From: Catajapyx aquilonaris | Taxonomy: Eukaryota | DNA: 64,000 nucleotides | Assembly: GCA_000934665.2 (NCBI GenBank) | Contig: JYFJ02001225.1 | Span: 1 to 64,000 of the forward strand | Direction: 5' to 3' | Shown: piece by piece, positions 34,099-64,000 of the stretch | How the letters are laid out: each line of letters opens with the position of its first letter | How positions within the stretch are numbered: position 1 is the first letter of the stretch | The notes under the pieces: generated by a model | Databases searched by the model: none | What the model was told of the DNA's origin: nothing | Seen by the model: only the letters and a program-made list of their open reading frames with translations | Position numbers and translations under genes: made by a program

Positions 34099-37000
34099 TC
34101 ACAGGCCGCCGTTACTTGGAGGTCCAATGGGACCAAGGTCCGTGTTGTTCTTTAGGAAATATTTCTCAAGTTTGGCGATGATGTGCTTTCCGTAGGTGTA
34201 CTTGCGCAGGGAGTTGAGATGCGGACGGATCTTGTGCATGAGGACCTTGCGCTGGGAGGGCTCCGACACGTCAATCATCTTCTGGACCACATAGTTCGCG
34301 TACTGGTCCTTCATCATTATATGTAAGGCACTGTTTGGATTGCTGGAATGGAGGTTAAAATGAGTTAGGACATTACAAAGGGGACGCTCAGTTTCTGAAG
34401 TGCACGATGAAGAGCGATCCCAGTACATCCAAATATGCCACTCACTTGTCATTGTAACTGCAAATCTCATCGATGAGCATGGCCTTCTCTGGCCTGGTGG
34501 CGTAGGTGACACACTTCTCCACCACGTTGGATGCGAATTTGTGCTGAGACAGCTGCAAGACTTTTCCTCTCACCACTGACACAATCTTCGACTTATCATC
34601 AGCCTTTCCATGCTCTGCGAAACACACAAAAGTAATCTTATCCAAAACATACCACCATTTCTGGATATGAATTGTTATTGTCTGATCAGCACTGCAAATA
34701 CTAAGTGAATTCCACCTGCTCAAAGTACTGCGAATCAGAGCTAAGGTATTGAGGTATTGAACTGTCGGTACAATATAATTTTCTCCAGACAAACCAGTGT
34801 TAAATTCCAATTAAAAACAGAAGCCGCAAAACTCACCCAAGACATGCTGTATGACGTAATTCCCATACTGGTCCTGTATTAGCTGCTCAGTGTGCCCATG
34901 TAGTTCGTCTAAAATGGGTGTGGTCTGCTCTGGTGTGCAGTGCTCCAAGATGCGTTGGATCACACGGCATCCATATGGATGTGTTGACAGGGCAAATACC
35001 TGCAGGAAGCGAAGAAGTCAAAATCCGTATCCAAAAACCGTGCAGTCAAATAAGTAAATTGGTAGCTCTGGTCCTCCAGACACTCATCGTATCACAGAAT
35101 TTCAATACGTAAGCAAACACTAACCTGTCCCTGGAAGGCATTGATGATAAACTGCAATGCATGTGGGTCGACACACTCGATGCACTTCTGCACAACATGG
35201 TTCCCATTCTGGTCTTTGACGCACTTCAGAACGTGCCCGTCCAGCTCCCTCACAATCTCCTTCTGCTGCTCTGGTGGAATCGACTCCAGTGCTTTCTGGA
35301 TCACCCGGCAACCATACATCTGCAGAGCCAGAGGGAGGACATGGCCGCGAACCTGGCAATGGAAGTAAATGATGCATCTAGGTGAGGTTCAAACACAGAG
35401 TGGTTGGGTTAACCAACCAAACAGGACCTTCAATCAAAATTCTCATTTAAAATCTTATCACTGATGCAGTTTGAATGTACTTTCATCCCTCGACTTACAT
35501 AAAAATTGTGGTGGTGATTAGGATCAGATGCGATATTTCTCAAAACACAACATGTTCAGTGACTTAGGTCCGTACGATCATCACGTCCTTCCCCACCACT
35601 CTTAAACATGAATTCAATAATATGCAGTAGTAGCTACACAACTTTTTTTTTTTTTGCGCACACATCAAAACTTCCTACTTTCTGTGCGAGAGTGGCCTTC
35701 TGCTCTGGTGTTCCAAACTCGAAGAACTTCTGGATGACATAGTTTCCGAAGACATCAGTCATGAGGCTGTAAGTGGCCTGCAGAATTTCACTGAACACCA
35801 TCTGCTTCTCTGCAGGTGTGGCCCTCTCAAGCTTCTGCTGGATGAACCTGGATCCATGCTGGTCTTGGCTGAACTCTACGATGTGATTGGCAAGGTCCCG
35901 AAGCTGAAGGTTGGGGAAGCGGTTGTTCCTGAAGTCCTCCAACAGCCGGCTACGCCCAATTGGCTTATCCAAGGAGGAAGACGCCGCACTGTTACGTGAC
36001 GTGAACTTTGTGAAGAGTGATGCCGCAGTTGCAACCCCACTGTTGGCACCACCATTCCCACCACCAAGACCCACGCCAAGGCCAGCACCAGATCCAAACA
36101 CGCCATTTGTTGGAATCCCTCCGTTTCGGAACTTGGCTTCGGCACCTGGGGCTGCACTCAGCATGCGGCTTCCTGTTAAAATGCAAAGGTCACATTATAA
36201 TCTTACGCTTCAATAAAACAGCCTGTTATCGTAAATAAGTGGCAATACCATTTGAAATATTTCAATTGGATTTGTCAGTGAAAGCCAATAGATATTGTAA
36301 TGACAGAAATTAGCGGCGGTTAGGATCAGATGCGAATGTCTCAAACACAACTTGTTCAGTGACTTAGGTCCGTACGATCATCACGTCCTTCCCCACCACT
36401 CTTAACAGTGAATGTGAATAATACATATTAGTAGTCGTTTCAACTTCTGTTTCAGTTATGTCAAAAAACAAGTTTCATCTTCATGATGCTGTGGCCTGAC
36501 ATACCTGACATCAAAGCGCCCAATTGCAAGTTGGAAGTGCTGCTGGACAGACTAGGAGGGGGTGTCAGAGACCCAGACCCAAGTCCGAGAGGCCCTGGAG
36601 ATGCCGTGACTGTCCCAAGGGCACCGTAATTCTGGGTCCATTTCCCCCTGGCGTAGTCCAGAGATGGAGAGTAGGAGGCAGTGCGATCAAAAGAGTCGCG
36701 CCGTCCAGAGTTGCCGTTGCCCAGCCCAAGTCCTGACCCCAAGGAGCCCAGGGCTGGAGAGCCGATGGTGCCTAGAGAGTTATTTCCATAGCCAAGAGAG
36801 CTGTTCTGCTGGATGTTCAGTGAGCCAAAGCCTCCACTCAGGCTGGACGACTGGAGGCTCCCTGGAATCCATTAATTCAATAATGGGTCACACATCAAGA
36901 GGGAACTGATAACTTCAAAAAAAAAAAAGGGTTGCATCTCACATGCTTTTTATCGAAAATTACTCCTTTTAAACCTTGCAAGGTGCGGTATATGCAAGTA

Positions 37001-40000
37001 GTGACACCCAACACCAAAATTGAAATTAATGTACACTGATAAAAAGTTCACATTAACCCACAACCAAGCTAATAATTTTCTGACCGGCACTTCAGGTGGA
37101 TATGAAGCGAAATTTCAATGCCTATGAATTTCCACAAAAGTTTCATAACTTCAACTATAAAAATCCTGCCTACACCAAAATCCGCAGATGCTCAAGTCCT
37201 TTATATTGATTAGTATGGCTGTTCACGTACCCCATGTACTCGACACCATCCGACGTTACTTATATTACATAATACCATTGAAGTGCTCAGCGCACAGCAA
37301 ATTCACTTTCCATAACTTTCTCGAATGGCATTATTTTTCCATTATCATTTTTGGGGATTTTCTTGCAGCTTGAGCAGCTTGAACACCTTAGCGGATTTTT
37401 AAACCCCCACAGACAGAATTTTACGACTTCATTATTTTCCATCTTTACACATGAAGATACGCAGTTACATGAAGGATGAGATGCGAAATTCTCTAACACA
37501 ATCTGTTCAGTGGTCCATACATCATCACTTCCTTCTACGGTTCAACATATCCTGCCACACATACACCCCAACAATCAACTGTACTATCACCAGCACACAT
37601 CACCCTTGCTAACTATGTACATTAATTGACCCTAATTTAAAGCGAAATGTGAAAAATTTGGATGGGACGTACGTAACTCACCTCCCAAGGCCCCACCACT
37701 TGAGGAGGAGGAAGAGTAGATGGAAGCAGGCTGGTTACCGTTGTACAGAGAGGCTGGAGGAGTCTGAATTTGCTGTGGTTGGTTGCTTAGCAAGCGCAGG
37801 TTGCTCCCTTTTTGAGTGGGATTTAGGATTTTCGGTTGTTTTTTTTTTGGCATAGGTCGGAGGAGGGACAGGGGTTTTTTTTGTACAAAGGTTAAAAGAA
37901 GCCAATTTGGTGAGGAGGAAAAGCAGACATACCTCGTTTTAGATCTCTTGCAATCAACACTCATGCACAACAATTCCCTTTGCTATCTAAATAACTAGTG
38001 CACAAACATTCAATGCTCATTACCAACTATCACCCTTAATTCTTTGTACAAAAATGCACCAACATTACGAAATATTTATGGTACTTTGTGAATTTAAAGG
38101 CACACATGTTATCCTGGACATCTCACGTGACCAAAATGAAAGAATTTATGGAGCACCGAGAGTGCCAGTGTTTCTAAGAGTTTACAGTACACCAGAGTAC
38201 TACGGGTGATTGGATAGTGTTGTCTAGATTGTAATTATTTGCTTGACATTAATCTAAAATCAATACAATAGACTTTGGTTTAACGCAGAGTAATCATCAT
38301 TGCCAAAAAAAAAATACCCTCTTGGTATCACATGAACACCACAAACTATGTACCACAACAGGATCACAGGACTGTACAAACGATCCGAAACTGATCTGTA
38401 CACTGTACAAAGGAAATGTTCTTCCTGGTGTCTCACCTGGATTTCCTGTGTTGACCAGGACTGGTGCAGGTGACACCAACCTGACTGGAGTCCCGTTGCC
38501 AATGCCTCTCATGTTTCCCATCACCAGGGAGCCGTTCTGGTCATAGTAGGCAGGTATCACCTGATACTGTCCTTGCACCTGCTGTGGGAATAAAGAAATA
38601 ACTTTACAACCATGAACTTCAATTCCGTAAATAAAAGGATCCGTAAATATGCTTTTAACAACACTTGACATCTGCTATGCAATTTTCCCATTTTGACGTT
38701 TTCTGTGCCAAGGAACATTTCCTTAGACTAACACTGACCTCCTGACTTTGGTATGAAATGCTTTTCCCAAACAGGGTCTTCGATCAAATAGATATATTTT
38801 TTTTAAATCATAAGACTCTGCTTCTACTGTTGTGCAGTTTGAATGCACTTTCATCCCTCTACTAAACCAGTGGCGATTAGGATCAGATGCGAAATTTCTC
38901 AAAACACAACATGTTCAGTGACTTAGGTCCGTACGATCATCACTTCCTTCCTCACCACTCTTTGACAGGGTATGTGATAAAAGAATTCGTGCATATTACC
39001 AAACTGTAATGTAAAAAAAAACTAAAGCTGCATCATCATCATCATGACTGACATGACACACATGCCATATGAACTATCCTTTTTTTTTACCTAGCCCCTC
39101 CCAAAAATTCCTCAGTTTCAGTTGTGCCACAGTTATCATTTTCAGCTTTAGCATGGTCTGCATGCCCATACAAATGGCCAACATAAGATGACATTTAGTC
39201 CACTGGCTCTAAGAATAGGCATCTGGGCAGACACCAAACTGACATTTGCCATTATGACACCAAAAGATCAAGTGTCTTTTCATTCGCCTGACAGTGCTGG
39301 GAAAAACTGTACTGTACTTCCGAAAGCATAGCGAGTGGAAGTGTTCACGCAACTGACCTGTGCAAGATTCCCTCCATTTGTGGCAATATCTGGTGCAGAA
39401 GACGGTGTAAGTGGCCGCCTCTGCTGTGCTGCCGCGGCTGCTGCCGCAGCATTTTGTTGGAGGACATTGGCTGGGTATACACCCCAAGGGGCTGCCACTC
39501 CATAGTACTGAGGAAGGACCGTAGGGCCTGGAAAAGCGAACACAACTCTTCAGAACATTGCAGTTAAGATACTGAGAAATACCGACAGGCTGAAACATTG
39601 CAACAGTACGCACATATTAGCGGTAAATTAGTGGGGACATTCATACAAGTTTCAGAAGCACAAAAAGTAGGCATGCCCAATCTACAAAATGTAATTTCCA
39701 TATAATTATCTGGCTGCATGATAGCAATGTGGCTTACTTGTTAGTCACAACATGACAGACCCCACGTAAGCCTTGGGTTTACTTCATTTTAACTGTAATG
39801 ACAATACTTCCAATATCACGACGACAACTTCGGAGTAGTTTTCCAGAACACTTGTCACGTAAGTTTCTCTCGCTTATCAGCTGCAGTTAGCAGAACATTG
39901 TACCATGACCTATCCCTCTTGCCATGGTCAAGGGACCAAAACTAGACCCTCCACCCAAATCACTTGCCCCTAACCTGGCAGCTACGCCCCAAACTTTATG

Positions 40001-62097: not shown

Positions 62098-64000
62098 TAA
62101 TTGCTTTGTTATGCGGCTATACGTATGTTGTCCTTTTTGCAAGTCGCTGTTCAGACTTCCTAAAACAGGAAAAGGTTCCAGTTTTTCTCACCTCAAAATC
62201 GGGGCTGTGTAATGGGTGTGTCTACTTCGCCTCATTGCTTTACTTGTTAAGAAGCAACTCCTAAAGTCAACAGCTTCGCCTATATAACCCAAGCGAAAAT
62301 AAACCGCTGGAAATGGGTTCAGTTTATTAGTGTGGCCTTTTGATCAAATGCATTTTTGGCCGCCCGAAAAATTTCGGCGCGTCATTTATATAGAAGGCCC
62401 ACGTATCGTGGCTTGCCTCCCACGACAAGTGTGCCCCACAGAACTCCTTTTCGCCCGAAGGTTACGTCATCGTTGCCGGGTAACCACCGTCGAGGTAACC
62501 CAGTCACATCCGCGCACCCCACACGTGGCAACACCGCCCTGCAGGCAGCTTTTGGTATATACGAGAGGGGAAGGGTCATTGACGCATTATTGATTTATGG
62601 ACGGATAGTCGGCCGGCTCTGTGTGTGTATGTTAGGTGTGTGCGCGCACACTCGAGTACATGGTGGTGGGGGGTGGGAGGTGAGTGAAGTACCGGTTGAT
62701 GGGACACATCGCGTCGAGATATCAAGGCATCGATTCCGGACACTATCGATAGATCAAATCAGCCAAAACAATAAACTGGCTACCACCATTGCGGATACGC
62801 TCATGTAATAGCTTGGGTTATTATACAGTAACTGGCGTCCGTCCATCGTGATATCAGTTGGATATCGGCTGCGTAGGAGTGACATACCGACCAATAACAT
62901 CACCGTCTCGAGAGACTCAGACGTGCAACTTATGTATTCAGATTTTTACAAAAACAGTTCGGGATTACGTCAGCATCGATCATTACTCAAGTCACAATAA
63001 CTCTGCCGATATGAGCTAAATTATGTAACACATGGTATGCTCTATGCACATGTGCTCGATTTATTCGATAAGGTGACTAATATTACTTCAATGTCACAAA
63101 CGTACTGGCATGCACATGCATCGTGTCCTATTTACCTGAGGTGCTCCAAGTGGCATCCCTCCACATTTGGTCGCTCAGATGGAGAATCCCTTTGTCGTCC
63201 TTCTGCTCTTCCACACCCCACAGCTTCTTGGCCGAGGGGGCAATCTGAAAAACAAATCGCAGGAAATTGCGTCACATTGGTGTATACCCAACAAACAAAA
63301 AAACCACAAGTACATAATTTCTCATTTGTAGTAACGGAATCACAATGGCAGCAATTTCATTCAGCAAAGTTCCATTCCCATTCCTGTATTGGTGGGTAGG
63401 TAACAGTGCGGCTGTGGCAATAAAGCTAATCAAGTGTTCCCAATAAATCAGTGGCACCAATATCGGCTGATTTGGATCACGTGGCGACAACCTGCGGGCA
63501 CGGGCTATGCACCACCCTTGGATATGCCAATATATTGATATCGCTATTTAAACAAACTGATTATTATTAATTTAGGCGCAGTAAATGCAGGGTGCTGCAT
63601 TCTTTTCGGCGCAGTGACTCTTGATGCAAGTTGGAATACGCAATTTATCGCACACGTACCGGCGGCTTACATAAACGCACTTCCTGCTGGCACCGTGCAT
63701 AACCTCACATGCTTCCTTTTACATTTCACATGCCGAATCGCGCGCATGAAGAAATCTTCCCAGGTTGCCTGAGGTAACCTCCGACCCGACACGAAAATGG
63801 GGTTTATTCAGAACTTGCGAATTCACCTTCCGGGATTATTTCTCAAACATTACCCGATGATCGTATTCACGATTTATAACTTCTAATTTATCATTAGCCA
63901 GAAAGTGCAAAAAGTGTGTAGTACATCATAATACTGTGTTAAATTCTTCGATTCCATTTTTTTTTTTTGTGAGATTGCGTGACCTCGAATAAAATTATGT

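Follow-up and report, generated by a model that had tools for sequence, protein, structure and literature searches.

The window, a 64,000-nt stretch of DNA, carries on its minus strand what is, judged from its sequence, the 3'-terminal part of a classical Pumilio (PUM-HD) gene of an arthropod. The visible part of the gene was delimited by tblastn of the proteins P0189, P0132 and P0200 against the window, and the Pumilio N-terminus possibly lies beyond position 63247. The exons of the PUM-HD and the elements of the last intron are as follows (slashes here and below mark splice boundaries).

34099-63247, minus strand: visible part of the Pumilio gene, at least 13 coding blocks
35679-36172, minus strand: exon E1, PUM-HD region with PUF repeats 1-2 and the preceding linker (PF00806, E = 3.1e-26, two stretches)
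35125-35352, minus strand: exon E2, PUF repeats 3-4 (PF00806, E = 7.5e-22, two stretches)
34837-34999, minus strand: exon E3, PUF repeats 5-6 (PF00806, E = 2.1e-24, two stretches)
34446-34614, minus strand: penultimate exon E4, PUF repeat 7, ending ...EICSYND + AA (sequence, translation, PF00806 and structure alignment)
34444-34445, minus strand: donor GT (CAA/gtgagt), read from the sequence
34364-34368, minus strand: CTAAC, putative branch point; its A, at 34365, lies 22 nt from the G of AG1 and 34 nt from that of AG2
34354-34358, minus strand: TTAAC, second putative branch point with its A at 34355, 12 nt to AG1 and 24 nt to AG2
34345-34360, minus strand: pyrimidine-rich tract ttttaacctccattcc, immediately 5' of AG1, read from the sequence
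34343-34344, minus strand: upstream acceptor AG1, exon start 34342, long loop NDN-NPNS-ALH
34331-34342, minus strand: 12-nt alternative segment CAATCCAAACAG, the last two bases of which are the acceptor AG2
34102-34330, minus strand: last-exon core common to both forms, PUF repeat 8 and the C-terminal tail (sequence, translation and PF00806)
34099-34101, minus strand: stop codon TGA

The translations of the five exons all score above the curated cut-off of PF00806 (5/5), and their 2+2+2+1+1 stretches make up eight PUF repeats. The PUM-HD of the window is 80.5% identical to the full Pumilio P0132 over 431 aligned positions and 90% identical to the Schistocerca protein over 355 tree columns, and the best solved-structure matches of the window exons are PUM1, PUM2 and fly Pumilio. 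In addition, the RNA-recognition residues of repeat 7 (S-N-x-x-E), which in the fly are given as S1342, N1343 and E1346 in passages of PMC4995099, are present in exon E4 when it is aligned to the fly and human chains. The earlier note had called the gene Pumilio, and the repeats, the identity to orthologues and the structure matches bear this out.

The penultimate exon ends in ...TGC AGT TAC AAT GAC AA, followed by gtgagt, and the end of the last intron reads cctaactcattttaacctccattccag/caatccaaacag/tgcc on the minus strand. The downstream acceptor AG2 (34332-34331) lies 12 nt from AG1, sets the exon start at 34330 and gives the short loop NDNALH. The 12-nt segment codes for the third base of Asn, then Asn-Pro-Asn, and then the AG of Ser; the split Asn codon is AA/C via AG1 and AA/T via AG2, and the T at the start of the core (34330) completes Asn with AG2 and Ser (AGT) with AG1. 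The last exon, read from 34341, ends in ...GGL, and the stop lies at 34101-34099. Both spliced frames are open to this same stop, with 431 (AG1) and 427 (AG2) residues counted from E1. The two in-frame CAG acceptors 12 nt apart are thus as claimed in the earlier note, in their coordinates, in both products and in both open frames.

According to excerpts of the TassDB2 paper (PMC2878309), tandem alternative splice sites (TASS), including NAGNAG and wider frame-preserving pairs spaced by 2-12 nt, are both frequent and widespread, and the pair in the window falls within this range, with two AGs 12 nt apart (2-12 nt, at most 18 nt) and the frame kept either way. A second in-frame AG within 15 nt is found at 2/9 acceptors of the gene, while the AG frequency of exons predicts it at a share of about 0.35, so the tandem by itself is not above chance. 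What we regard as the non-trivial part is the placement of the 12 nt at exactly the exon junction at which loop length varies among Pumilio homologues. The pyrimidine fraction at -23 to -4 is 0.75 for AG1 and 0.60 for AG2, and the other acceptors of the gene range from 0.60 to 0.80. RNA folding of the intron with its flanks gives z = -0.37, with no significant structure able to mask AG1. We also considered whether the 12 nt are chance intron sequence and rejected this, as the frame is kept, Pro and Ser stand at positions conserved in homologues, and a good acceptor lies upstream.

Loop length was measured as the number of residues of the segment between LI.EV and MMKDQ. Among 224 Pumilio homologues, the short class has 92 members, of which 87 are insect-type; another 92 belong to the GPHS type, and 27 exceed the latter by one residue. 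The last group consists of copepods and branchiopods with a 14-residue segment, for example ISFSDTNPHSPLHT. The short product of the window has a segment of 10 residues (ND-x-AL) and the long product one of 14 (ND-NNPNS-AL), compared with 13 in vertebrates. The segments of Collembola have 16-27 residues and that of a mayfly has 18, and all named neopteran insects sampled are short. In the tree, the window sequence groups with Collembola and insects (93/92) and stands outside mayfly plus Neoptera (92/91), with support below the starred level, and long loops persist in Collembola and the mayfly, at the window's region of the tree. In an alignment to human PUM1/2, the Pro and Ser of the window's NPNS fall on those of P-H-S; this alignment and the length shared with the 27 homologues mark the long form as conserved coding sequence. 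Its length matches that of branchiopod and copepod Pumilio, suggesting that the long loop is the ancestral arthropod type.

In structure alignments, Drosophila Pum reads ...CTFND followed by N-A-L-H (3h3d/5kl1), and human PUM1 reads ND-G-PHSAL (1ib2), so both loops are as the earlier note had given them, as is the contact of F1367 in the R7-R8 loop with Nanos, which is stated for the fly in passages of PMC4995099. According to the same passages, PUF proteins have a partner-binding hotspot in the R7-R8 loop, which engages Nanos in flies and CPB-1, among others, in worms, a 4-residue insertion in the fly loop (Pum-Mlu) abolishes the Nanos complex, and human PUM1 without the vertebrate insertion binds fly Nanos (citing Sonoda and Wharton, 1999). 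The likeness of the window to the Drosophila loop (5KL1/5KL8/5KLA; Weidmann et al., 2016, PMC4995099, in the excerpted text) lies in the family, the loop, the length of the short form and the ND-N-AL-H motif; in contrast, the fly is short only in the sequences seen, whereas the window could give both forms, and its long form adds four residues about where the Pum-Mlu insertion disrupts. The earlier description of the short isoform as fly-type holds for the exact insect loop length and motif, but not for the Nanos-contact residue, because the window has Tyr where the fly has F1367 (CSYND vs CTFND), a conservative change that is also found in a louse homologue. The description of the long form as vertebrate-type is imprecise. 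The GPH(S) loops of vertebrate PUM1/PUM2 (1IB2, 3GVO) resemble it in the aligned P and S of NPNS, but the window loop has 14 rather than 13 residues and Asn in place of His; the long product does not show the vertebrate ND-GPHS-AL of 13 residues and instead matches the branchiopod and copepod length.

Of 80 loci retrieved, 78 carry the motif, and 36 of these are of genomic type. The intron is found at the same position in contigs of a termite host (acceptor gatacag/T GCA) and of ants (donor GAC AA/gt, acceptor gcatag/T GCA), both of which give the short form only. It is also found there in annelid-like contigs, which are long only, and in the metagenome contig L041; copepod-like contigs have an intron at about the same place and are long only. 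An in-frame tandem occurs in 1/36 genomic-type loci, none of which comes from a close relative. This locus is L041 (matching ORF P0269), with the donor GAT GG/gtaagt and the acceptor ctgtttcag/C AAC CAC AG/T GCC. Like the window, it has two in-frame acceptors at this intron and a pyrimidine tract before the first AG, but its sites are 9 nt apart, giving G-NHS-AL or G-AL, and it is known from genomic sequence alone. In the nemertean Lineus longissimus, isoforms X16 (P0156) and X4 (P0196) of one gene differ by PHS (NEG-PHS-ALY vs NEGALY) at the same point, the pattern expected of an in-frame tandem acceptor, although the difference is 3 residues (9 nt) rather than 4 and the isoforms are database predictions. 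Furthermore, the last exon of a short cDNA-like sequence (L033, NDGALYS) is identical at 73/73 positions to the genomic ORF P0251, which reads ...CRPHSALYS, with PHS in frame upstream of ALYS. The downstream AG may therefore be the mRNA form in the same design, and the short form could be the major one in the window after all. Protein searches found no protein of the same species (best matches 93% over part of the query, about 72%, and, in the search for fragments spanning the junction, 89%). Taken together, the comparative data make dual acceptor use plausible, short of demonstrating it for the window gene.

The codon of the loop Ser was compared among these sequences as a possible sign of selection for AG2. 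It is AGY in 9/9 distinct non-copepod cDNA sequences that have the Ser, and TCN in all copepod and annelid-like sequences. Because this distribution follows lineage, it fits descent as well as splice-site selection, and we rejected it as uninformative.

We favor a reading in which AG1 is the main site and AG2 is at most minor or regulated, in which a shift of acceptor is the origin of the insect short loop and of several others, and in which the loop affects partners; we put its probability at roughly 50%. The last intron would be an old phase-2 intron located precisely where the variable part of the R7-R8 loop begins, and the host an arthropod grouping with springtails and insects. As a rule, of two AGs separated by more than about 8 nt, the one reached first from the branch point is used. 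AG1 is most likely the main site, since the pyrimidine tract immediately precedes it and no other AG lies between it and CTAAC, and it would give the long loop ND-NNPNS-AL of branchiopod and copepod length. AG2 would coincide with the first two bases of AGT, the Ser codon at the end of the long loop, and its use would remove N-P-N-S and yield exactly NDNAL, the short loop of the insects sampled. The short form would be no more than a minor or regulated isoform, and the same acceptor shift may have led to the short insect loop and to several short loops in other phyla. In the fly and human proteins, Nanos recruitment depends on how long the loop is, so any short isoform would be expected to bind partners differently; a Nanos cofactor switch in the window gene remains an inference. 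The window does not contain the organism's own Nanos.

The gene may also use both acceptors appreciably in a tissue- or stage-specific manner, for example germline versus soma, and so make a short Nanos-competent Pumilio and a long-loop one that prefers other partners, the kind of switch that the earlier note had proposed. We hold this to be possible but doubtful. The spacing of the two branch-point-like motifs would allow a separate one for each AG, both products are natural loop classes, both forms are annotated for the one nemertean gene, and the short cDNA L033 matches an ORF with in-frame PHS upstream. Excerpts of PMC4484395 report, for C. elegans, a switch between germline and soma in the choice of neighboring 3' sites separated by up to 18 nt, a precedent for such regulation, and Nanos binding is controlled by loop length in the fly and human proteins (PMC4995099, in part). 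However, the Lineus isoforms are predictions, the folding result offers no significant structure to mask AG1, and the Nanos-contact position is Tyr, not Phe.

A further possibility is constitutive use of a single site. If only the long form is made, AG2 is the first two bases of a conserved exonic Ser codon and never serves as an acceptor, and the likeness of the would-be short product to insect Pumilio comes solely from the later loss of these codons in insects. The position of AG1 after the pyrimidine tract and first downstream of CTAAC fits this, as does the frequent occurrence of AGs in frame within exons. Cladocerans, springtails and GPHS-type animals share the AGY Ser codon with the window through common descent, and the copepod and annelid-like loci are long-only; but the same design elsewhere yields or coexists with short transcripts (Lineus, L033/P0251), and the pyrimidine fraction of AG2 is within the range of the gene's genuine acceptors, and we judge an exclusively long product unlikely. 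An exclusively short product, as in insects, with the upstream CAG and NPNS as a recent relic inside the intron, appears highly improbable. The window groups with hexapods, and the neopteran insects named above are all short. TTAAC, only 12 nt from AG1, could make AG1 sterically unfavorable and so could be a factor favoring AG2. Against this, introns normally lack an AG between branch point and acceptor, the 12 nt retain a Pro and the reading frame along with a good acceptor context, and the window stands outside the pterygote clade, with springtails and mayfly still long.

A broader scheme can also be drawn, which we consider rather improbable. Acceptor choice at one ancient phase-2 intron would set R7-R8 loop length across bilaterians, some animals would make both forms, Neoptera would have fixed the downstream site and thereby gained the short loop clamped by Nanos, and the arthropod of the window, near the base of hexapods, would keep both sites as a regulated cofactor switch, for example between germline and soma. 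Our literature search found no paper on splicing at the Pumilio R7-R8 loop and one report of a Pumilio tandem site, a donor elsewhere: in excerpts of PMC8055015, a tissue-biased 6-nt tandem donor of human PUM1 exon 17 removes two PUM-HD residues. That event concerns a donor at another exon, while the window case concerns an acceptor at the partner-binding loop.

Engineered insertions or deletions of 3 or 4 residues in the R7-R8 loop switch Nanos recruitment off or on, as stated in passages of PMC4995099. If animals make such changes by acceptor choice, it becomes testable how one Pumilio serves germline, embryonic and neuronal programs with different cofactors, and why the Pumilio-Nanos interfaces of fly and vertebrate differ. 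The comparative result holds even with single-site use here: the boundary between long and short loops is the acceptor of the conserved intron, and a shift of that acceptor would thus be a simple mechanism for the origin of the insect-type loop.

Searches with three full-length homologues as tblastn queries place a minus-strand Pumilio gene in the window, from 63247 to 34099, in at least 13 coding blocks. The Pfam PUF model (PF00806) scores above its curated cut-off in the translations of all five exons of the PUM-HD (E1-E5), which contain 2, 2, 2, 1 and 1 repeat stretches, and the closest solved structures are those of human PUM1/PUM2 and fly Pumilio. No closely related or same-species protein was found in the searched protein collection, where the best identities per search are 93% (over 88% of the query), about 72% and 89%. 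With splice junctions marked by a slash, E4 ends in ...GAC AA/gtgagt at 34446, and the 3' end of the last intron reads cctaactcattttaacctccattccag/caatccaaacag/tgcc. It offers an upstream acceptor (AG1, long loop) and a downstream acceptor (AG2, short loop), whose reading frames are both open as far as one common stop. Re-reading of the intron end, both frames and the CTAAC motif showed that the earlier note had described the tandem acceptors exactly to the base; a second branch-point-like motif, TTAAC, was absent from it.

PUM-HD exons and splice elements of the window Pumilio gene
36172..35679, minus, E1, PUM-HD exon
35352..35125, minus, E2, PUM-HD exon
34999..34837, minus, E3, PUM-HD exon
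34614..34446, minus, E4, PUM-HD exon (penultimate)
34368-34364, minus, CTAAC, branch-point-like, 22 nt to AG1 and 34 nt to AG2
34358-34354, minus, TTAAC, second branch-point-like motif, 12 nt to AG1 and 24 nt to AG2
34344-34343, minus, AG1, product AA/C AAT CCA AAC AGT GCC = N-N-P-N-S-A
34332-34331, minus, AG2, product AA/T GCC = N-A
34342 or 34330 to 34102, minus, E5, PUM-HD exon (last)
34101-34099, minus, Pumilio stop codon

The tandem by itself is not above chance: of the gene's 9 acceptors, 2 are accompanied by another AG in frame no more than 15 nt away, and about 0.35 in-frame second AGs per acceptor are expected from the AG frequency of the exons. Its location is the special part. The feature is a candidate member of a known, widespread class, tandem splice sites 2-12 nt apart as described in PMC2878309, and the unusual part is the place where it cuts. 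A switch between neighboring 3' sites from germline to soma has been documented in C. elegans (PMC4484395), and a tissue-biased 6-nt tandem donor is described for human PUM1 exon 17 (PMC8055015). Full-text searches, covering the main texts of papers, found no report of splicing at the Pumilio R7-R8 loop.

In fly Pumilio, F1367 in the R7-R8 loop packs against Nanos M378, and the F1367S substitution abolishes the ternary complex (Weidmann et al. 2016, PMC4995099). The same source describes Pum-Mlu, in which a four-residue insertion in this loop disrupts both assembly of the complex and repression of hunchback, a three-residue insertion in vertebrate PUMs, without which human PUM1 binds fly Nanos (citing Sonoda and Wharton 1999), and worm FBF-2, whose corresponding region binds CPB-1 and other partners. 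From these engineered loops we infer that the two predicted isoforms may differ in Nanos binding. Unlike the fly protein, the window Pumilio has Tyr at the F1367 position.

Loop length was taken as the number of residues separating two conserved motifs, LI.EV and MMKDQ, in 230 full-length homologues, with taxon names taken from the search tables, and the pattern was matched in 224. The segment has 10 residues in 92 of the 224 and 13 residues (ND-GPHS-AL type) in another 92, although 63 of the latter share one identical vertebrate PUM2 loop and are not independent. The 13-residue group includes vertebrates, amphioxus, molluscs, a brachiopod, nemerteans, a millipede and a horseshoe crab, as well as decapods and isopods with NAHS. 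Copepods and branchiopods have 14 residues (27/224, e.g. ISFSDTNPHSPLHT), and other lengths occur in 13/224 (16-27 in Collembola, 18 in a mayfly). Most short loops (87/92) have a C-x-F-N-D-N-A-L-like reading, and those with a species name read are from insects throughout (beetles, bees and ants, moths, flies, bugs, locusts, a termite and thrips). The five non-insect short loops are those of Owenia, Mactra and Limulus, all three gene predictions, Lineus X4 and one other. The predicted products of the window gene have segments of 14 (AG1) and 10 (AG2) residues, and the 12-nt segment, which sits right at the start of the last exon, is the exact gap between the crustacean (14) and insect (10) classes. 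Alignments give CTFND-N-ALH in fly chains 3h3d/5kl1 and ND-G-PHSAL in human 1ib2; together with PMC4995099, they bear out the fly loop, the F1367-Nanos contact and the longer PUM1 loop that the earlier note took as established. Its "vertebrate-type" label for the long form fails on length, which is that of the branchiopod/copepod class.

Scanning metagenomes with the last exon gave 582 matching stretches; 357 were confirmed, and 80 loci were retained. The MMKDQ motif is present in 78 of the 80; 41 of these 78 are uninterrupted from repeat 7 (cDNA-like or intron-less), in 36 (genomic) the frame breaks immediately before the A/P-L of the loop, and one is truncated. Termite-host contigs (acceptor gatacag/T GCA CTG CAC) and ant contigs (donor GAC AA/gt as in the window, acceptor gcatag/T GCA) have only the short form. 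Annelid-like contigs (acceptor tgtag/G CCT CAG TCT GCA) have only the long form, and lack a second in-frame AG because their Ser codon is TCT; copepod-like contigs also have only the long form, with the intron at about the same place. Locus L041 (donor GAT GG/gtaagt, acceptor ctgtttcag/C AAC CAC AG/T GCC) resembles the window in its tandem design, with the alternatives G-NHS-AL or G-AL, but its sites are 9 nt apart. Judged from sequence, the last intron appears to be old and the loop boundary appears to be its acceptor; comparison of the termite, ant, annelid-like, copepod-like and L041 contigs thus indicates that loop length changes through movement of the acceptor of a single conserved intron.

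We favor the long form as the predicted main product and the short form as a minor or regulated one (probability about 0.5). AG1 lies directly 3' of the pyrimidine tract, is the first AG 3' of CTAAC, and gives a product that retains Pro and Ser aligned to the human P-H-S at crustacean length; the pyrimidine fraction is 0.75 at AG1 vs 0.60 at AG2. Given 3' splice-site scanning and AG-exclusion zones, it is usually the first of two AGs about 12 nt apart that wins, and an unused AG is avoided between branch point and acceptor. Exclusive use of AG2 is very improbable.

Some use of AG2 is suggested by its context, which is inside the range of the gene's other acceptors (0.60-0.80), by the TTAAC merely 12 nt from AG1, and by two comparable cases. 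The Lineus longissimus isoforms X16 (P0156) and X4 (P0196), both database predictions, are identical apart from alternative blocks, namely a stretch around residues 539-560 plus a pair of short PUM-HD indels, one of which is PHS at the R7-R8 loop (NEGPHSALY vs NEGALY). Locus L033, an uninterrupted 419-residue ORF, has the short loop NDGALYS, and over the last exon it shows 73/73 identity to the genomic-type ORF P0251, which reads ...VFCRPHSALYS across the acceptor; because the two are from the same or sister species, the match is suggestive of downstream-AG use and not proof. These observations make a long form only rather unlikely, and they are what a regulated switch, with appreciable amounts of both forms, would draw on, a reading that we hold as tentative and slightly less doubtful. 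No RNA structure masking AG1 was found (z = -0.37).

In a 54-row maximum-likelihood tree built on the PUM-HD, to which the loop supplies a few alignment columns, the window Pumilio groups with Collembola and insects (93/92, moderate and below the starred level) and outside the mayfly and Neoptera group (92/91, moderate). Its source is thus probably a hexapod that branched early, or a near ally. Long or variable loops are still present around this place among the sampled homologues.

Several further junctions were observed. The second Lineus PUM-HD indel, a predicted 4-residue VREN at ...FNGQ/VFTLSTHPYG..., matches the E2/E3 junction of the window. Decapod Pumilio P0144, P0145, P0218 and P0219 differ from P0136, P0179 and P0210 by short inserts (NV, LQV, NMIEV) within ...LIEEV-CGY..., adjoining the R7-R8 loop just upstream, which suggests that repeat 7 may hold a further variable splice junction. 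The genomic-type ORF P0294 (112 aa) reads ...FSPHS-YIFVVFS-ALYT..., with PHS codons in frame seven codons upstream of a short-type acceptor that has its own pyrimidine run; the PHS stretch may be left over from an earlier long-form acceptor. Two related genomic sequences with the same C-terminal tail, L047 and P0289, read ...RYS-NALQA vs ...FFSNS-NALQA at the loop acceptor, where P0289 may have a 6-nt in-frame tandem. In the window, the acceptor of another Pumilio exon (38578-38584, minus) is a NAGNAG-type tandem, cccacag/CAG/GTG, whose use could insert or omit a single Gln, and the alignment of insect homologues begins at the first CAG. Three different Pumilio introns contain copies (35511-35608, 36311-36408 and 38870-38967) of a dispersed repeat that is about 98 nt long, with 69-94% identity to the reference copy; the repeat is probably a short interspersed element.
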